In this document: piece after piece, positions 1-45,834 of the stretch
How the letters are laid out: every line of letters begins with the position of its first letter
How positions within the stretch are numbered: the first letter of the stretch is position 1
Assembly: GCA_944387395.1 (NCBI GenBank)
Contig: CALXEU010000017.1
Span: forward strand, 92-64,091
Reading direction: 5' to 3'
Source of the DNA: an uncultured Clostridia bacterium
Lineage (GTDB): Bacteria > Bacillota > Clostridia > TANB77 > CAG-508
Length of the DNA stretch: 64,000 nucleotides
Position numbers and translations under genes: made by a program
The notes under the pieces: generated by a model
What the model was told of the DNA's origin: nothing
Database searches by the model: none
What the model saw: only the letters and a program-made list of their open reading frames with translations

Positions 1-30
1 GTAATTTTATAATTTCGTGGGAGTAATTTT

Positions 31-163: not shown

Positions 164-209
164 TAAAAAAACAAGTATAATTAGAATATTTTTTACTCTA
201 ATTATACTA
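164..209 (-). terminator. rho-independent terminator
   Basis: Perfect 12-bp inverted repeat AGTATAATTAGA/TCTAATTATACT with a 12-nt loop. It is followed on the minus strand by a T7 run, just downstream of the YjcZ-like gene. Confidence 0.7.
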
Positions 210-242
210 AGTATTTACACTAATTAAAATTATGTCTTACTT

Positions 243-434
243 CTAACGGCAGCATCCACAACATCCATTATTTGTAAACAATAATAAGAATATAATTATA
301 AAGAATAATATTCCGCTATTTCCACAGCTAGAACCACAATTATTACCTCCAAAAAAACTTCCAAGATTGCAACAACATCCACAGTTATTTCCTCTTTGTG
401 ATTCTTCTACTCTACAATTTCTATTTTCGTCCAT
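243..434 (-). CDS. YjcZ-like tiny sporulation membrane peptide (tiny-TM family; Cys/Gly/Asn-rich ends flanking a hydrophobic core)
   Basis: 63-aa ORF. CGCC/GCCGCC-type Cys-Gly motifs flank a 20-aa hydrophobic stretch. Two paralogs lie at 53.4 kb. Confidence 0.6.
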   Translation of the reverse strand: MDENRNCRVEESQRGNNCGCCCNLGSFFGGNNCGSSCGNSGILFFIIIFLLLFTNNGCCGCCR

Positions 435-3454: not shown

Positions 3455-5068
3455 CTAATAATCAAAAGCACTTCCTCCAATAAACTCTCTAAGTAATGAA
3501 TTTCTTGGAACAAATTCTTCATCTATATCATCAAAATATTTCAAGAAATCTACTAATCTTTTTGCCTCTGAGTATTCTGGTTCTTTATTTGTTATTTCTT
3601 CAAGAAGTGGTAATGCATGTTTTTTTAGCAGGCTTATTTCATATATTAGAGATGAGTTAAACATTGCATCACAATTTTCTTGGAATGGGAATATATTTTT
3701 ATTTTCTCCTCTATTTACACTTCCCCATGTTCTTAAAGTATGTAGTGCACTATATCCTCTGTAATTATTATCACGTACAATTCTTCTTATTAATCGTGTA
3801 TCTGTAGTTGAAATACGATTATAGTAATCTATGTTTAATACTGTTAAATCACTTATATAAATTTTATATTTTTGACTCATAGGAATTGATGAAGTTAATT
3901 TATCATTTAAGCAATGTATTCCCTCTATTACAAGGATTTCATCATTTGCTAATCTCATTTTTTCTCCATTATAACATTTGCTACCAACTTTAAAGTCAAA
4001 TGTTGGTACATCTATTTCTCCACCATCTAATAAAGTCTTTATGTGTCTATTAAATAGTTCTAAATCAATTGCTTCTAGACATTCAAAATCATAATTTCCA
4101 TTTTCATCTCTTGGGTTATCTTTTCTTTCTACGAAATAGTTATCCACAGATATTGTTACTGGTTTTAATCCATTTAATCTAAGTTCTATTCCTAATCTTT
4201 TAGCAAATGTTGTTTTTCCTGATGATGATGGTCCAGCAATTAGTACCATCTTTACGTCCTTATGTTTTGCAATATCATCCGCAATTTGAGCTATTTTTTT
4301 CTCATGTAATGCCTCTGATAAAAGTATTACATTTTTTGGATTCTCGTGTATTTTTTTATTTAATCTATAAAGAGTATTAATTTCTAATACTTTATATATA
4401 TCGTCATACTCTTGTAATGTTGACATTAATTTTTTATTTTCTTTAAATTCTGTTAATTCATTTGGATTTGATTGTGATGGATATCTTACAATAAATCCGT
4501 CTTTATATAATTTTAGTTCAAATATATTTACAATTCCTGTAGAAACAGGCATTACTCCAAAAAAGTAATTATAATAATCTTCGCAATAATATAAAGAAAC
4601 TCCTTCTTTTTGTTTGTTATCCATCTGAAGAATTCCTCTTTTTTTATTCTCCTTTTTATAGAATTCTTCCGCTTCTATTTTGTTCATTACTACTTTTTTT
4701 ATTTCTAAGTTTTTTGAAATTATTTCTTGCATTTTCATAGTTATATTATCTATCATTTCTTGTGTAACAGAAATATTTTCTATTTCACAGAACATTGCAT
4801 TTGAAAGCTGATAATTTATTGAAATCCATGCTTCTGGATATAATTCAGCTATAGCTTTTGACATTATATATAATATTCCTCTTACATAAACTCTGTGTCC
4901 ATCTTTAGTTGATGTATCTAATAATTCTATTTCATCATTTTCTTTTACGTCATAATTTAATGATTTTACTTTATTATTACGCATACATGCTATAATTTTT
5001 CTACCTTCCTCATTTGCTTTTTTTATTTCTTCTGCATATTTTTCTAATACTTTCATAATTTTCTTCAT
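3455..5068 (-). CDS. nucleoside/uridine kinase family protein with N-terminal TGS-like domain
   Basis: P-loop LIAGPSSSGKTTFAKRL and PRK/uridine-kinase-like C-terminal half. The N-terminal ~90 aa resemble a ThrRS/TGS fold. Confidence 0.6.
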   Translation of the reverse strand: MKKIMKVLEKYAEEIKKANEEGRKIIACMRNNKVKSLNYDVKENDEIELLDTSTKDGHRVYVRGILYIMSKAIAELYPEAWISINYQLSNAMFCEIENISVTQEMIDNITMKMQEIISKNLEIKKVVMNKIEAEEFYKKENKKRGILQMDNKQKEGVSLYYCEDYYNYFFGVMPVSTGIVNIFELKLYKDGFIVRYPSQSNPNELTEFKENKKLMSTLQEYDDIYKVLEINTLYRLNKKIHENPKNVILLSEALHEKKIAQIADDIAKHKDVKMVLIAGPSSSGKTTFAKRLGIELRLNGLKPVTISVDNYFVERKDNPRDENGNYDFECLEAIDLELFNRHIKTLLDGGEIDVPTFDFKVGSKCYNGEKMRLANDEILVIEGIHCLNDKLTSSIPMSQKYKIYISDLTVLNIDYYNRISTTDTRLIRRIVRDNNYRGYSALHTLRTWGSVNRGENKNIFPFQENCDAMFNSSLIYEISLLKKHALPLLEEITNKEPEYSEAKRLVDFLKYFDDIDEEFVPRNSLLREFIGGSAFDY

Positions 5069-5257
5069 CCTTTCTTTTAATTGTATTTATTATTAAAGTA
5101 TATTATTTTTTTCATATTTTTTTTACTGTTGGATATAATTATATTAATTTCTATATTTTTTATAACTTTCCTATTTGAGATTGTAATAATTTTAAGTTTA
5201 TTTAGTTAATGCTATAAAAGTATTAACACTATATATTAAATATTTTTGGAGGTACTT

Positions 5258-11218: not shown

Positions 11219-12016
11219 TTAAATTTTCTTTATGTATTTTATATTCTCTATATTACTATTCTTGCTTCTTTCTACCATGCAATTATAAACTTTATTTCTT
11301 AGATTATTTTGCATTTCTTTAGGTGTTAGTCCTTCATCTGCAAAAAATGGCCCATCTATATATGTAACTATTTTAATCTTATCCTTCTTTTTTCCATAAC
11401 TTTGGTATGTATTTGTCATGCAAAATGTAGGAGTATTCCATTTTACTGGATATTTAAATGATACAGATTTGAAAGGTCTTATTTTTGTATAGAATGGCCA
11501 TATATGTGCTTCTGGATAAATTGTAATTGATGATTTGCTCTTTATCTTACTTTCCAATGTATCTATAAAATTTTTTGTTGCTGTTTTATTTCCTGGAACT
11601 GGTATTGCACCTAGCATCTCTACTACAGTTTTTAATCCTTTCATAGATATATTCTCTGGATTAACAATTACAAAATTACGTTTAGGATATACTCCAACAC
11701 TTGGAATAAAGGTATCTGCAAACTGCTGTGTATGATTTACATATACAAAATATCCTTGTTTTTTATAAGGCTTTAACTTATTCTTTCCTACATATTTTAA
11801 TCTAAACCTTATATTCTGATATGGAACTTTTATTACCATACTTATAAAATTTTGTAAGATATATGAAGTTATATCCCATAATTTGTTATGCTTATATTTA
11901 TAGTTTTCGTCTATTATTCGTGGTTCTATATTTGCTGTTGAAAATTCATCATTTAGTTCATCTGTATAATAAATTATTGGTTGCTTTTTATATTTTTTCA
12001 AGCTTTTACTCTCCAT
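11219..12016 (-). CDS. lysophospholipid acyltransferase-like protein
   Basis: PlsC-like blocks (VNHTQQFAD, IYPEAHIW). The start abuts the stop of the upstream gene. Confidence 0.45.
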   Translation of the reverse strand: MESKSLKKYKKQPIIYYTDELNDEFSTANIEPRIIDENYKYKHNKLWDITSYILQNFISMVIKVPYQNIRFRLKYVGKNKLKPYKKQGYFVYVNHTQQFADTFIPSVGVYPKRNFVIVNPENISMKGLKTVVEMLGAIPVPGNKTATKNFIDTLESKIKSKSSITIYPEAHIWPFYTKIRPFKSVSFKYPVKWNTPTFCMTNTYQSYGKKKDKIKIVTYIDGPFFADEGLTPKEMQNNLRNKVYNCMVERSKNSNIENIKYIKKI

Positions 12017-13816
12017 TTATTTAATTGTTTTTATTGTAGTATATGTAAGTGGAACTTTATAAAAATCTTCATATACTTTTTTCCAAACATTATAATTTTC
12101 TTCCTTCATTTTTTCTGTATTTTGTTTTTCACTTAGGTCATCTTGTGGATATATTGGTTTTTCTATATTTACGTAGTATTCTTGTATTGGGAATCCATCA
12201 TCTCCTATTATATTGCTATCCTTCATGGTTATAAATACTGGTATTACTGGAACTTTGTTTCTTGCTGCCATTTTGAACGCTCCGTTTTTTAATGGCTTTG
12301 GTTTTCTATAATTCCACCACATACTCTGTTCTGGATATATTAGTATAAAATCTCCTCTTTGCAATATTGTATCTACTGCTTTCATGAAATTTATCATAGT
12401 TCTCTTATTTGAGCTTAATGGGAGAGTATCACAGTTTCTAAAAAAGAAACCATATAATCCTGGGAAATTAGTATAATTTCCTTCTCTTATTACTTTATAT
12501 AATTTTTTATTTTCTGATTGACCCGATGTTCTAAATACGCTTTCTATTGTAAATGAATCAAATGGGTTGAAATGATTACATGTTATCATTGCACCAGTTT
12601 GCACTTTTTGTAAATTTTCTATACCATTTATTTCTTTTATAATTAACTTGTTATCCCTTAATATATCTTTTAAGAATTTTTTTGCCATTGTATTTGCAAC
12701 TTTGCTTTTTATTTTGCTATAGCTTTTCTTTCTTAAATAGTCTATGTTTTCCGGTGTTAATATTATTGTTTCAGGATCATTTTCTACATCTTCATCAAAT
12801 CTTCCTTCTCTTTCAAGTTTCTCTATTTTTTCTAGAACCATTACTCTTTCTTTTGATTTTGAAGGTAATTCTTCCTCTCCTACTCTTTTTTTCATTCTAT
12901 CGTCCCCTACACAATCAGATTCTTTTTTTGCTAATGCAATTAGATTATTTGTTGTTTCTGCGTCATTAAATTTTTGTTCTTCCGTGTAATTATTTTTTAT
13001 TCTTTTTATTTCCTCATAAAATTCTGTTTCTTTAGCGTATTTCCAGAAATGTTCTTCATATAGTATGTTATCATTATGCCAAGGTTTTAATCCTAAATTA
13101 TAGTGTATAATTTTTAGTTCATTTTCATCTAATTTTAGTTCTTCAATTGGCATAGCATTCCAGCCTTTATCAATAATCTTTGCTCTACCTTTACAAATTC
13201 TATTTAAGTAGTCTTGGTCTTGAGCAACAGTAAATTTTATTGTTCCTAGCAAATATAAAAATTTTTCTAAGAATCTAAATTTTCTTAATTCATCTAAGTT
13301 CATTAATAAAATTCCTGCATTAAAGTATTTATTATAATCATTTATACCTACTACTTTTTCAACGTACTCTTGAAATATAGGAACTGATTGTATAACACCA
13401 TCTGGTACACCTGCAACAAGATTTTGACCTATATCTATATTATATAAATTTGCTATATCTTCTAAAATTGTAATATCACTATCTAAATAGATTACCTTAT
13501 TATATTGAGGATATAAATCTGGTAGGAATAATCTAAAATATGTAGTTTTTGTGTAATAGTCTCTTGTATATAATTTATCTTTAATTGTTTCTACATATGA
13601 CGTTAAGTCTACAAATTCTACTGAAACATTTTCTTTATTATATTTGTATATTTTTTCCATATTTTCTTTTTTTATATCTGTATATAATATTTTAATTATA
13701 TATTTGTTTTCTTTTTTAGAATTTTGTATTAATGATTCTATGGCTACTGATAAACATGGTATATATGCATCATCTACTGCAAAAAATATTGGTATTTCGT
13801 TTAAATTTTGTTCCAT
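12017..13816 (-). CDS. bifunctional glycosyltransferase family 8 / lysophospholipid acyltransferase fusion
   Basis: N-terminal GT8 fold with DxD (YLDSDITIL). C-terminal PlsC-type domain with NHFNPFD (HX4D) and IYPEQSMWW. Confidence 0.65.
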   Translation of the reverse strand: MEQNLNEIPIFFAVDDAYIPCLSVAIESLIQNSKKENKYIIKILYTDIKKENMEKIYKYNKENVSVEFVDLTSYVETIKDKLYTRDYYTKTTYFRLFLPDLYPQYNKVIYLDSDITILEDIANLYNIDIGQNLVAGVPDGVIQSVPIFQEYVEKVVGINDYNKYFNAGILLMNLDELRKFRFLEKFLYLLGTIKFTVAQDQDYLNRICKGRAKIIDKGWNAMPIEELKLDENELKIIHYNLGLKPWHNDNILYEEHFWKYAKETEFYEEIKRIKNNYTEEQKFNDAETTNNLIALAKKESDCVGDDRMKKRVGEEELPSKSKERVMVLEKIEKLEREGRFDEDVENDPETIILTPENIDYLRKKSYSKIKSKVANTMAKKFLKDILRDNKLIIKEINGIENLQKVQTGAMITCNHFNPFDSFTIESVFRTSGQSENKKLYKVIREGNYTNFPGLYGFFFRNCDTLPLSSNKRTMINFMKAVDTILQRGDFILIYPEQSMWWNYRKPKPLKNGAFKMAARNKVPVIPVFITMKDSNIIGDDGFPIQEYYVNIEKPIYPQDDLSEKQNTEKMKEENYNVWKKVYEDFYKVPLTYTTIKTIK

Positions 13817-13848
13817 TCTTTTCTCCTTTTAAATTCATTTTATAAAAA

Positions 13849-14691
13849 TTATTGTTTTATATATTCTTTTTCTTGTTCAAATTTTTCTTTTAATTTTTTG
13901 TATTCTTCTAAATCTTTATCAAATGTGTAACATTTTAAATAACGGTGTATTTCTTCTACATTCCACTGTTTATAGTTTTCTGTGTGTGGATATGGTGTTA
14001 ATAATAGCCTTTTGCAAAAGTGACATATTATTGTACCTTTTCTATTGAATTTAGATTGTTCATTATATTTTCTTGGTAAAATCATTTTTTTTGTTGTTGA
14101 CCAAAATATTGCATCTTGATCTGCAAATATTAGTTTACGTTTTTTTAATAGAGCTCTTGCTTTTTCAAAAAGTCCTGTTTCTTTTATTTTATTCATGTTT
14201 AATAATAGCATTCCTGCATTTATGTAGTCCGGCCTTATAAATACTGAACCGTATTTTTCCTTTACCGCTGCATATTCGTATTCAGATATGTCTGTATTAT
14301 ACAATTCCGATATATCTCCATCTGCCATCATATCTATATCTAAGTATAATATTTTTTCTGGTATTTCCTTAACTTTATCTGCTAAAAGGCGCAATAAGGT
14401 ATATGGCGTGCAATAGGCATTTTCATTTTTTCCTCCACCAAATTCTTCTTCATATAAGTTTGTTACATCTATCTTTGTTACATTGTTTTCTTTATTTTTA
14501 GTTTTTACTACTTCATCTAAAAATTTTACTTGTTCATCTGTTATACAAGTATATTCTTTTTTTATTCTTGAAACATCCATTGTGAATATATAACAGTTAA
14601 TTGTTTCTTTTGTTTTGTTTGTTATTGATATGAGTTCAGATAATGCTCCATCAAATACTCTTTGGTTTCCACATAAAAGTATATTAATCAT
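13849..14691 (-). CDS. glycosyltransferase family 8 protein
   Basis: GT8 motifs including DxD (LDIDMM). Similar to LPS 1,3-galactosyltransferase / GspA-like enzymes. Confidence 0.65.
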   Translation of the reverse strand: MINILLCGNQRVFDGALSELISITNKTKETINCYIFTMDVSRIKKEYTCITDEQVKFLDEVVKTKNKENNVTKIDVTNLYEEEFGGGKNENAYCTPYTLLRLLADKVKEIPEKILYLDIDMMADGDISELYNTDISEYEYAAVKEKYGSVFIRPDYINAGMLLLNMNKIKETGLFEKARALLKKRKLIFADQDAIFWSTTKKMILPRKYNEQSKFNRKGTIICHFCKRLLLTPYPHTENYKQWNVEEIHRYLKCYTFDKDLEEYKKLKEKFEQEKEYIKQ

Positions 14692-14798
14692 TTTTTTCCC
14701 CTATTTTTACTTCCTTTAATTTTACATTTAACATTATACTCTATAAAGAAAATCTTTTCAACTTTTTTATGATTTTTTACTGAGAGCATAATAAAAAA

Positions 14799-14827
14799 TT
14801 GACAAATTTAAAATATATATGTATAAT
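14799..14827 (+). promoter_or_regulatory. consensus sigma-A promoter (TTGACA-17-TATAAT) driving a short antisense RNA
   Basis: Exact TTGACA at 14799-14804, a 17-nt spacer, exact TATAAT at 14822-14827. Confidence 0.7.
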
Positions 14828-14834
14828 AAATATA

Positions 14835-14926
14835 GGAAAAAGAAATCGCAGAAATGCGATTACCAAATATTATTTGAATAACGACACATCGCTCTGCAGA
14901 AGCAAATGTGTCGTGTTTTTATTTTA
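14835..14926 (+). ncRNA. candidate cis-antisense sRNA (type I antitoxin-like), ~90 nt
   Basis: Predicted TSS about 7 nt after the -10. 5' stem-loop AAATCGCA-gaaa-TGCGATT. 3' terminator CGACACAT(16-nt loop)ATGTGTCG followed by TGTTTTTATTTT. Fully complementary to the 3' end and 3' UTR of the peptide gene opposite. Confidence 0.5.
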
Positions 14927-15029
14927 TCTGACTATTAACCCATTTTATGTATAAAATACATAGCAAGGCTAAATTCATTGTTATTGATATCATTAATCCT
15001 ATTACTAGGAATACAAATACTTCTAACAT
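14919..15029 (-). CDS. 36-aa hydrophobic peptide (candidate type I toxin), MLEVFVFLVIGLMISITMNLALLCILYIKWVNSQIK
   Basis: Absent from the ORF track. Strong RBS GGAGGTGAGG 6 nt upstream. A single TM helix then a polar K-terminated tail. Its own terminator (hairpin at 14843-14861 plus T-run) lies inside the sRNA. Confidence 0.5.
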   Translation of the reverse strand: MLEVFVFLVIGLMISITMNLALLCILYIKWVNSQIK

Positions 15030-15247
15030 ATAGCCTCACCTCCTTGCTCTCGATTAACCGAGTTTCAGAGGTAACACACACATCTGCTAACTTTCTTTTT
15101 CCTATTCATCTACTATACTATATGTTTTACTAAAAAACAAGTAAACTTTCTAAAAATCAATAAATTTATTTTGTTAATTTAAATTTGTAACATGTATATT
15201 TTTAATTTCAATAAAATACAATAATACAAAGGAGGACTACTTAATTT

Positions 15248-15706
15248 ATGGCAAAATTTAAAATTTTTGCGAAGTCTATACTTATTCCTGTTATGGTTGG
15301 TTTATTTGTTGGCTTAATTATTTCTAACTCTATTGATTACAATTCCTTAAACAAACCATCTCTTGCTCCACCTGCTATTTTGTTTCCGATTGTATGGACT
15401 ATTCTTTATGTTTTAATGGGTATTTCTTATGGAATTCTTGAAAGCGAAGAACTTGTAGACTCTAAAGTAAATTTAATTTATTATAGTCAGCTTTTTGTTA
15501 ATGCTTTGTGGCCAATTTTTTTCTTTGTACTAAAATTAAGATTATTTTCTTTTATTTGGATTATCTTTTTAGTAGTTTTGGTTTCAATTATGATTTATAC
15601 TTTTATAAAGAAAAATAAATGGGCAGGATTATTACAAATTCCATATCTTGCTTGGACTATTTTTGCCACATATTTAAATTGGTTTGCTTATGTTCTTAAT
15701 AAATAG
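15248..15706 (+). CDS. tspO: TspO/MBR family tryptophan-rich sensory protein
   Basis: Five TM helices with TspO signatures (KP..APP..FPIVWTILY.LMG; YL.W..FA..LN). RBS AAGGAGG. Confidence 0.8.
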   Translation: MAKFKIFAKSILIPVMVGLFVGLIISNSIDYNSLNKPSLAPPAILFPIVWTILYVLMGISYGILESEELVDSKVNLIYYSQLFVNALWPIFFFVLKLRLFSFIWIIFLVVLVSIMIYTFIKKNKWAGLLQIPYLAWTIFATYLNWFAYVLNK

Positions 15707-44699: not shown

Positions 44700-44728
44700 T
44701 TGACAGTTTTATGTAAATGTACTATAAT
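44700..44728 (+). promoter_or_regulatory. consensus sigma-A promoter (TTGACA-17-TATAAT) for the orphan gene at 44863
   Basis: Exact TTGACA at 44700-44705, a 17-nt spacer, exact TATAAT at 44723-44728. Predicts a ~128-nt 5' UTR. Confidence 0.6.
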
Positions 44729-44862: not shown

Positions 44863-45834
44863 ATGAACAGAAATGAAGTTGTTTCTCAGTTGAGCACTAG
44901 TGTTTCCAAACTTATTGGTCACGAGATCAGTGTAGATAATGTCCACACTGATCAATTCGGTTGGTTTGACCGAATTCCGGTTAAATCCCTACCCAGTTTT
45001 CGTCCCATTATCATAAGTGATTCTCGGGGAAATCTTTCATTAGTTCTCCCTACAGACGACTTAGGATGGTTAAAACACGAAGTTTTTTCCATTCAGGACT
45101 ATATCGATAGCTCCGTATGGAGCTACGGTTATTACAATGATATCAGTCCCCTTTCTGAATCTGTACTTTACAGATTCAGATGGCAACCTTTGGAAACTTC
45201 GGGGATTCATGATACCGAAATGGTTTCTAGGTATATTTCTTACCTACTAGCAAATGGAACCAACCCTCATTATATACAAAAAGTACGTCATGTTTTAAGA
45301 ATCTACAAAGAAGACCCAAAAAATATTATTAGGGTCGAGGAGGTTGATGACCGAATCGCATTATACTTAGAGCTTTCTAGAAAAATTCAGAATCGCTTTG
45401 GTTTTGAGACACGCAACTGTGATTATCATGATAGGGACGATGTTATCATTGTCCCTAATGAACTGGAAAATGTGGTAGACCTATATCTACCACAATACTT
45501 AATGGTTGACTTGCTTTGTAATCCTGGAAAGTATTCTGTGAAGGAACTCGCAAGTAGTCTAATGTTGGAAATTAGTATTCCAACTAAAAAACGATTCGGT
45601 TCCTATTTTTTTCCCTCTGGTACTCCTGTCACTGAGGAAACAACCACTCAGCACTTTTACGAAATCTGGAAAAAAGAATGTCCAGATTTCGTAGACGGAT
45701 GGTTTCCTAAGGAGGATGTACCAGAAATAAGAAAGGATGTTGAAGTTTCGAGTATAGAGGTCAAAACTACTTTTGTTAGGAAAGCATTAAAATGGTTTAA
45801 ACAGTTCTTCCATTTAGATTGCAACTGCATTTAA
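44863..45834 (+). CDS. hypothetical protein, 323 aa, atypical GC (~40%)
   Basis: Long ORF with a good RBS (AGGAGAG). No recognisable motifs. Composition clearly richer in G+C than the neighbours. Confidence 0.55.
   Translation: MNRNEVVSQLSTSVSKLIGHEISVDNVHTDQFGWFDRIPVKSLPSFRPIIISDSRGNLSLVLPTDDLGWLKHEVFSIQDYIDSSVWSYGYYNDISPLSESVLYRFRWQPLETSGIHDTEMVSRYISYLLANGTNPHYIQKVRHVLRIYKEDPKNIIRVEEVDDRIALYLELSRKIQNRFGFETRNCDYHDRDDVIIVPNELENVVDLYLPQYLMVDLLCNPGKYSVKELASSLMLEISIPTKKRFGSYFFPSGTPVTEETTTQHFYEIWKKECPDFVDGWFPKEDVPEIRKDVEVSSIEVKTTFVRKALKWFKQFFHLDCNCI

Follow-up and report, generated by a model that had tools for sequence, protein, structure and literature searches.

Type I toxin-antitoxin systems combine the messenger RNA (mRNA) of a small protein that is toxic to its host with an antisense RNA that keeps the toxin from being made, and have been delimited by an mRNA of 150-400 nucleotides (nt), a protein of 20-60 amino acids and an antisense RNA of 60-200 nt that pairs with the mRNA (PMC8594479). 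A layout in which the two transcripts overlap at their 3' ends is listed for Gram-positive type I families (PMC8594479, PMC6563280). In Clostridioides difficile, the toxins have 34-59 amino acids and a transmembrane domain, are opposed by convergent antisense RNAs and are involved in the maintenance of mobile elements (PMC6563280, PMC7699646). Here we describe a cassette found in a 64,000-nt stretch of contig CALXEU010000017.1 from an uncultured Clostridia bacterium (CAG-508); this whole stretch is called the window, and positions are window coordinates. On the minus strand the cassette encodes a hydrophobic peptide and on the plus strand, convergently, a small antisense RNA. From sequence comparison, the cassette is likely to represent a type I toxin-antitoxin family that has not yet been described, with the peptide as the putative toxin. 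The predicted mRNA of ~275 nt (from the promoter to a terminator-like site, both ends being predicted) and the 36 amino acids of the peptide fall within the size limits given above, as does the predicted antisense RNA of ~100 nt, which would pair with the mRNA.

A previous reading of the window, made from its sequence alone, had proposed in the gap upstream of tspO a 36-codon minus-strand open reading frame (ORF) with a strong Shine-Dalgarno (SD) site, facing an exact TTGACA-17-TATAAT promoter on the plus strand, and both elements are present (Table 1). The minus-strand promoter that it named also exists, with a 5' untranslated region (UTR) of ~80 rather than ~75 nt, and the plus-strand RNA has the expected stem-loop and terminator hairpin but extends to ~100 instead of ~90 nt. 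The gap, estimated at 550 base pairs (bp), measures 556 bp (14692-15247), and the end of the module at 15110 has to be moved outwards, given that it leaves out the mRNA promoter; the conserved block reaches ~15145. Column identity in the cross-locus alignment drops to a background of 0.45-0.55 beyond both promoters. No second copy of the peptide or of the region exists within the 64-kb window.

Table 1. Position of the elements of the cassette in the window and, in the last four rows, of the damage seen in related loci
Feature	Position	Strand	Remarks
Whole conserved cassette	14799..15145	both	~345 bp; column identity 0.7-0.95 inside
Antisense RNA promoter	14799..14827	+	TTGACA-17-TATAAT; 12/12 match to consensus
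Predicted antisense small RNA, candidate antitoxin	14833..14931	+	~100 nt; from promoter, fold and covariance model
Small RNA stem-loop 1	14844-14861	+	AATCGCA/TGCGATT; after the 5' tail, followed by a linker
Small RNA terminator hairpin	14882-14913	+	CGACACAT/ATGTGTCG; U-run 14914-14927 directly after
Peptide ORF, candidate toxin	14919..15029	-	36 amino acids, stop codon included in the coordinates; translation MLEVFVFLVIGLMISITMNLALLCILYIKWVNSQIK
SD-complementary element inside the ORF (candidate)	14962..14970	-	AGCCUUGCU; codons 20-23
SD site	15034..15043	-	GGAGGTGAGG; 4 nt before ATG; GG[AG]GGTGAGGC kept in nearly all loci
Small 5' UTR hairpin	15049..15062	-	CUCGGUUAAUCGAG; columns 75-80 with 86-91, 95.5% paired, 3 compensatory pairs
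Upstream anti-SD	15067..15075	-	GUUACCUCU; partner of the SD in the minimum-energy fold predicted
5' arm of the mRNA 5'-3' pairing	15070..15105	-	AUAGGAAAAAGAAAGUUAGCAGAUGUGUGUGUUACC; near copy of the antisense RNA 5' end
3' arm of the mRNA 5'-3' pairing	14832..14864	-	GGUAAUCGCAUUUCUGCGAUUUCUUUUUCCUAU; contains terminator-like hairpin 14861-14844
Peptide mRNA promoter	15117..15145	-	TTTACT-17-TATAGT; 9/12; 5' UTR ~80 nt
L066, damage	4980-5157		In-ORF deletion and frameshift
L068, damage	4985-5155		5' half lost
L053, damage	4909-5000		Promoter and 5' arm replaced
L007, damage	205-300		Whole 5' UTR replaced; 604-nt contig, could be a chimeric assembly

At the level of compared sequences, the related loci establish that the peptide is coded for, that the two-hairpin antisense RNA is conserved and has a strong promoter, that the 5' and 3' ends of the mRNA pair, and that the anti-SD has two alternative partners, whereas the SD-pairing element inside the ORF has the status of a candidate. 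A scan with the peptide alignment of one genome per species, covering 185,579 species, yielded 60 loci, all in assemblies of Clostridium sp. or of gut Clostridia that are uncultured, sampled from human, mouse, rabbit and chicken. The loci L001-L003 belong to the same species and are 99% identical to the window, and are therefore uninformative for comparison.

More than 60 loci, belonging to about 57 gut Clostridia species, carry an intact homologue of the peptide ORF. At first parse, 57 of the 60 loci had an ORF of 34-36 codons with ATG, stop codon and the GG[AG]GGTGAGGC motif; the ORF of L067 is intact by inspection, and those of L006-L008 are also intact. Codon-position variability across the homologous ORFs is 14.5 / 4.1 / 22.6, and pN/pS (non-synonymous over synonymous change) is 0.375 when read in frame, compared with 1.33 and 3.12 for the two shifted frames; judged by these patterns, the ORF is truly coding and under purifying selection. 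The peptide is a single hydrophobic helix; all 19-residue segments starting at residues 1-13 have hydropathy scores >1.6, covering residues 1-31. In the family alignment Asn19, placed in the middle of the membrane, is invariant and Ser15 nearly so, and the peptide ends in a short C-terminal tail of weakly basic character. At 14919-14931 the sequence ATA AAA TAA and the adjoining A-run are the reverse complement of the U-tract of the small RNA terminator; because the same bases serve both, the conserved C-terminal Ile-Lys-stop is doubly constrained. The peptide ORF is missing from the ORF track of the window, and protein databases hold the family almost only as unnamed gene calls with a wrongly extended N-terminus. 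Among 1.84 billion representative proteins searched with HMMER there were nine relatives with 56-77% identity, several of them over-long gene calls whose extra N-terminal residues are the translated conserved 5' UTR.

The promoter of the antisense RNA is one of only two perfect TTGACA-17-TATAAT sequences in the window, against 0.06 expected by chance, and the homologous TTGAC[AT]-16..18-TATAAT scores 11-12/12 in 60/60 loci with enough flanking sequence. Its -10 box ends 87-102 nt past the peptide stop codon, on the opposite strand, and the spacer sequences vary freely among loci. The small RNA folds with an energy z of -3.7 relative to shuffles. A covariance model, R1, built from 27 sequences, scores 111 bits at 14831-14933 and recovers the small RNA in 64/64 related modules. 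In an alignment of the 64 sequences 98% of cells are paired and shifted-pairing controls score far lower; one terminator pair appears as UA 27 / GC 17 / AU 14. RNAalifold missed the terminator hairpin in the raw alignment, since a variable loop upset the register, a problem that was solved by a covariance-model alignment. In stem-loop 1, G-U exceeds A-C by 54 to 7 on the small RNA strand, and thus the hairpin is selected within the small RNA. Being encoded in cis, the small RNA is fully complementary to the mRNA 3' UTR; it is also complementary to the last few codons of the peptide mRNA.

The promoter of the peptide mRNA is weaker, with 8-11/12 at the equivalent position of related loci. The minus-strand mRNA has a fold energy z of -7.1 relative to shuffles, and its two ends, of ~40 nt each, pair with each other. 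The mRNA and the small RNA begin with the same 12-14 nt in every locus, and both starts change jointly between loci; because the 3' end of the mRNA has the reverse-complement sequence of the small RNA's 5' end, the two mRNA ends are mutually complementary. In the window, the duplex of the two arms has an energy of -38.4 kcal/mol. RNAalifold applied to 56 full-length mRNAs predicted a helix of 5' UTR columns 31-65 with 3' UTR columns 300-332, plus a helix between the SD and the ORF. On a plain MAFFT alignment the long-range helix is 96.6% paired, with 13 pairs changed on both sides, a result equalled by 0/500 shuffles, and pairing is much lower with shifted partners. The 5'/3' duplex energy is -40.6 kcal/mol for cognate ends against -31.4 for non-cognate ends (permutation, 0/5000), and -12.3 for shuffled sequences. 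This co-evolving pairing between the 5' and 3' UTRs is the main structural feature of the mRNA, and it had been missed by the sequence-only reading, which had suspected a pairing with the SD.

The SD lies within a set of competing helices. In the predicted mRNA fold it pairs with the upstream segment UUACCUCU, and the idea that 5' UTR segments could pair with the SD is borne out by covariation: anti-SD columns 60-65 face SD columns 100-105, and the pair (65,100) is UA 25 / CG 23. These anti-SD columns also covary with columns in the 3' UTR, where (62,303) is GC 29 / AU 20 and (65,300) is CG 22 / UA 19. The anti-SD:SD helix and the anti-SD:3' UTR pairing are mutually exclusive, and an ORF-based tree requires no fewer than 6-10 changes in the covarying columns. 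Inside the ORF, SD columns 101-108 match columns 175-182 with 98% of cells paired and no compensatory changes; synonymous sites are frozen at Ala21 (GCC, 48/48, in a 28% GC genome), Leu23 (CTA, 47/48) and Tyr27 (TAC, 48/48). When the 3' UTR is masked in the modelling, anti-SD:SD pairing rises from 0.35 to 0.71. A GUURCC motif is common to the small RNA and the mRNA anti-SD. The direct action of the antisense RNA in trans on the SD was also considered; it found no support beyond shuffled controls, the small RNA reaching a predicted duplex energy of -17.3 kcal/mol with the SD region and shuffled sequences -18.2.

On the reading as a toxin-antitoxin pair of type I, the weak minus-strand promoter would make the ~275-nt mRNA for the 36-amino acid one-helix transmembrane peptide, the putative toxin, and the near-consensus plus-strand promoter the ~100-nt antisense RNA, the putative antitoxin. 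Alone, the mRNA would be closed by its 5'-3' pairing, stable and poorly translated, with an SD able to pair either with the upstream anti-SD or with the element inside the ORF. The antisense RNA, having the same 5' sequence as the mRNA 5' UTR, would displace this 5' UTR from the 3' UTR. The resulting duplex of ~100 bp would likely be cut by RNase III, and the displaced 5' UTR would free the anti-SD to close the SD. The translational part of this mechanism is tentative, because the predicted shift in pairing is modest. Upon loss of the cassette or decay of the antisense RNA, the peptide would be made and damage the membrane; in this manner, mobile elements and chromosomal regions would gain stability from carrying the cassette.

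A more elaborate version may be put forward tentatively, as a possibility that we regard as rather less probable than its opposite. The cassette could operate as a three-way RNA switch in which the antitoxin mimics the 5' UTR of the toxin mRNA and both compete for an SD-like decoy in the 3' UTR, the anti-SD moving between this decoy and the true SD. We know of no type I toxin-antitoxin system for which such a switch of antitoxin, 5' UTR and 3' UTR decoy has been described, nor of one whose antisense RNA combines binding at the 3' end, a copy of the mRNA 5' UTR and competition for the 3' partner in a long-range helix. If true, the antitoxin would control translation from ~250 nt away, without touching the ribosome-binding site, and the closed, long-lived toxin mRNA would be a memory allowing cells to be killed after loss of a conjugative element of gut Clostridia.

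The 221 proteins encoded next to the loci form 153 clusters, so the cassette has no fixed gene neighbourhood; the proposal that it is an inserted accessory module fits these many unrelated neighbourhoods, conjugative elements among them; no empty site turned up with which it could be compared, the nearest relatives being of the same species or on contigs of insufficient length. About ten loci (among them L009, L014, L020, L026, L034, L039, L041, L050 and L058) lie inside a type IV secretion conjugation module, between PrgI with a VirB4-like ATPase and a sortase. Seven others (L010, L016, L017, L022-L025) adjoin DUF6076, NUDIX and ASCH genes, and a tyrosine integrase is found upstream in four of these seven (L010, L016, L024 and L025). 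Five genomes have two loci each. One of these, the genome of L059, has a third module, found only by the RNA model, which lies 4.8 kb from the first on the same contig (155-347 and 5001-5198); both are complete, and the second of the two, the one found by the RNA model, encodes MVEILLFLIIGLMLSTTINIALLCIIYIMWTDKQI. A metagenome scan with a degenerate small RNA pattern gave mostly chance matches, 3 of the 80 loci searched being true; these are three further modules (L073, 488-859; L118, 7330-7700; L124, 625-995). They form a divergent branch whose peptide has 37 amino acids with the pattern M[IV]E..LL..I.LLFYGLIGVTIINIALIITLVIILSK (...GLIGVTIINIALIITLVIILSK), and this branch keeps the same 5' UTR, SD, antisense promoter and small RNA framework. 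The RNA framework is thus better conserved than the C-terminal half of the peptide.

Four loci are damaged, all on the peptide side (Table 1, last four rows). In all four the antisense RNA gene looks undamaged, with a promoter of 11-12/12 (L053 and L007) or an RNA model score of 67-114 bits. The reverse, an intact ORF next to a damaged antisense RNA gene, was seen in no locus examined. This one-sided damage, together with the heavy sequestration of the SD and the carriage on mobile elements, provides indirect hints that the peptide may be toxic.

A conserved ORF and an antisense RNA reveal function and not toxicity, and the cassette might therefore encode a harmless small membrane protein, for instance a transporter or envelope modulator, tuned by a cis-antisense RNA without any addiction role. 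The weakly charged C-terminus would agree with this, as would the glycosyltransferase genes adjoining the cassette at two loci, the window and L006/L029. Against it, no neighbour gene recurs, as indicated by the clusters described above, and the cassette rides on conjugative and integrase-bearing elements and has several copies per genome. That only the peptide side is ever damaged while the antisense RNA is kept throughout also speaks against it, and multiple sequestration of the SD combined with a stronger antisense promoter is typical of products that must be kept off. This explanation is thus unlikely, although it is the strongest of the competitors. A functional link of the cassette to glycosyltransferases was considered and rejected, given that the neighbours differ between loci.

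The inverted repeats at 14809-14845 and 15092-15129 raise a different possibility, in which they would be the terminal repeats of a small non-autonomous transposon, and the ORF, promoters and hairpins would be incidental. The repeats do change together between loci and the cassette occurs in many contexts, both in keeping with transposition. Nevertheless, on the mRNA strand the mismatches of the long-range helix are G-U in 170 cases and A-C in 23, an asymmetry that argues for selection on RNA pairing and against terminal repeats acting at the DNA level, and on which the transposon was rejected. Moreover, the repeats begin at the predicted transcription starts instead of where the conserved block ends, purifying selection acts on the ORF and the window holds no second copy; the transposon is hence very improbable. 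Even less credit can be given to the small RNA as a leader or attenuator for tspO, or to the peptide mRNA as a leader for its own downstream gene. This explanation draws on the position of tspO (15248-15706), 3' of the small RNA on the same strand of the window, and on a TspO gene near L037 as well. In other loci, though, the gene downstream of the small RNA differs and is usually on the opposite strand; a conserved strong terminator ends the small RNA 315 nt before tspO, and no cis-regulatory family of Rfam was matched. The tspO leader was rejected because neighbours vary between loci.

The type I toxin-antitoxin reading, which had already been advanced from the window sequence, is supported by the conserved ORF, the antisense promoter and the compensatory RNA structure, with the toxic role being inferred. 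All that could be expected of such a module computationally was observed. The outcome that would have spoken against it, an RNA conserved while the ORF is not coding, was not seen: more than 60 loci have an intact ORF that evolves under purifying selection. Several observations nevertheless weigh against this reading. No homology to known toxin or antitoxin families was found in Pfam, NCBIfam, Rfam or PADLOC, and tblastn gave no match in 72,556 plasmids, 50,697 phage genomes and IMG/VR, a search in which the low-complexity filter of BLAST may hide a hydrophobic peptide. The C-terminal tail has only ~1 positive charge, fewer than many characterised type I toxins. The compensatory changes at 12/19 pairs of the small RNA come from a covariance-model alignment that was fitted to the structure under test. 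In the modelling, the probability that the SD is unpaired is 0.12 without and 0.05 with the antisense RNA; since the SD is mostly paired either way, these values argue only weakly for the proposed translational switch. Finally, the U-tract of the mRNA terminator is poor in the largest subfamily, which leaves the 3' end of the mRNA uncertain.

The searches against individual libraries agree with a family outside those catalogued. The window peptide had no match in Pfam or NCBIfam, and the 56 distinct family members had no significant match in Pfam-A or NCBIfam, with only weak chance matches to transmembrane segments; in these libraries the peptide does not match Fst/Ldr, Hok, TisB, Ibs or other catalogued toxin profiles. 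PADLOC and PDB gave no match to the peptide family, and the peptide motifs were not found in the literature searched. Rfam holds 13 antitoxin RNA families (PMC8594479), and the small RNA matches none of the antitoxin RNA covariance models of this database. With cmscan at E up to 10, the interval 14300-15600 gave two chance matches, both elsewhere in the interval, and at gathering thresholds only tRNAs were found in the window.

Some features of the surroundings deserve mention. Upstream of the cassette, the cluster at 11219-14691 on the minus strand encodes GT8 glycosyltransferases, one of which, with 599 amino acids, is fused to an acyltransferase domain. In L006/L029 the module lies between GT2 and PMT_2 glycosyltransferase genes. 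Because the neighbours fall into so many clusters, the adjacency to glycosyltransferase genes in these loci and in the window is probably a coincidence. The locus of a TspO homologue, L005, does not share the gene order of the window; in this contig from an unrelated member of the Clostridia, a ToxN_toxin gene of a type III toxin-antitoxin system (1357-1869) lies 2 kb from the homologue. The only other perfect TTGACA-17-TATAAT in the window is at 44700-44728 on the plus strand, ~135 nt upstream of the ORF 44863..45834, a promoter site where Rfam at gathering thresholds gave no family. In the conjugation-module loci listed above, a large membrane protein has a C-terminal region that by eye resembles a cell-wall hydrolase domain, with no match in Pfam.

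If the proposed roles hold, this would be a new family in which sequence comparison backs both RNAs with unusual clarity, in hosts that are understudied, low-GC, uncultured gut Clostridia of human, mouse, rabbit and chicken. The presence of the cassette within conjugation modules suggests that it helps to retain mobile elements in gut communities. With a 5' UTR copying the antitoxin, the co-evolving 5'-3' pairing offers a testable model for how an antisense RNA bound to the 3' end may control a distant ribosome-binding site. Furthermore, the toxin and its antisense RNA could become tools for counter-selection or containment in Clostridia.

Among described systems, CD2517.1/RCd8 and CD0956.3 of C. 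difficile share with the cassette a Clostridia host, a small transmembrane peptide and a convergent antisense RNA. They were compared by description, and tblastn with the cassette peptide found no match in phages or plasmids. In Staphylococcus aureus, the antisense RNA of sprA1/SprA1AS also overlaps the 3' end of the mRNA of a small membrane peptide. SprA1AS works by means of a domain outside the overlap, with which it binds the ribosome-binding site (PMC8594479), whereas for the cassette the predicted pairing of the small RNA with the SD region does not exceed that of shuffled sequences.

With regard to the mRNA, the closest resemblance is to hok/Sok of plasmid R1 and aapA1/IsoA1 of Helicobacter pylori, in which the full-length toxin mRNA is locked by 5'-3' pairing and sequestration of the SD, and which have a role in maintaining mobile elements; 5'-3' interactions are used as descriptors in T1TAdb (PMC8594479). 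These systems belong to Gram-negative hosts and their antisense RNA binds the 5' region. In the cassette, which has no homology to them, the antisense RNA finds its complement in the helix's 3' partner and would compete with the mRNA's own 5' UTR.

The sequence-only reading had likened the module to txpA/ratA, bsrG/SR4 and fst/RNAII. The likeness holds for the layout only; no homology was detected, and the repeats of par are arranged in the opposite way. The par locus (fst/RNA II of Enterococcus pAD1, Fst/Ldr superfamily) has convergent transcripts, a bidirectional terminator region, carriage on mobile elements and a peptide of 33-36 amino acids with one transmembrane helix, as does the cassette, whose family members have no significant Pfam or NCBIfam match. 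In par the repeats are direct, so that the 5' ends of both RNAs are complementary and interact. In the cassette the repeats are inverted and the 5' ends of both RNAs are identical, not complementary.

The systems bsrG/SR4 and txpA/RatA of Bacillus subtilis provide the nearest parallel in overall organisation, with genes that converge, a hydrophobic peptide of small size and, as antisense RNA, a transcript of ~100 nt or more lying over the 3' UTR and the end of the ORF. The cassette differs from them in having no sequence match in the Pfam, NCBIfam or Rfam libraries, and in residing in uncultured gut Clostridia, with some copies on conjugative elements rather than prophages. To our knowledge, neither a co-evolving 5'-3' pairing of the mRNA nor a 5' UTR with the sequence of the antisense RNA's 5' end is known in these two systems. 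SR4 triggers RNase III-dependent decay of its target and tightens the sequestration of the SD from afar, and this dual action follows the same logic as that proposed here for the antisense RNA of the cassette.

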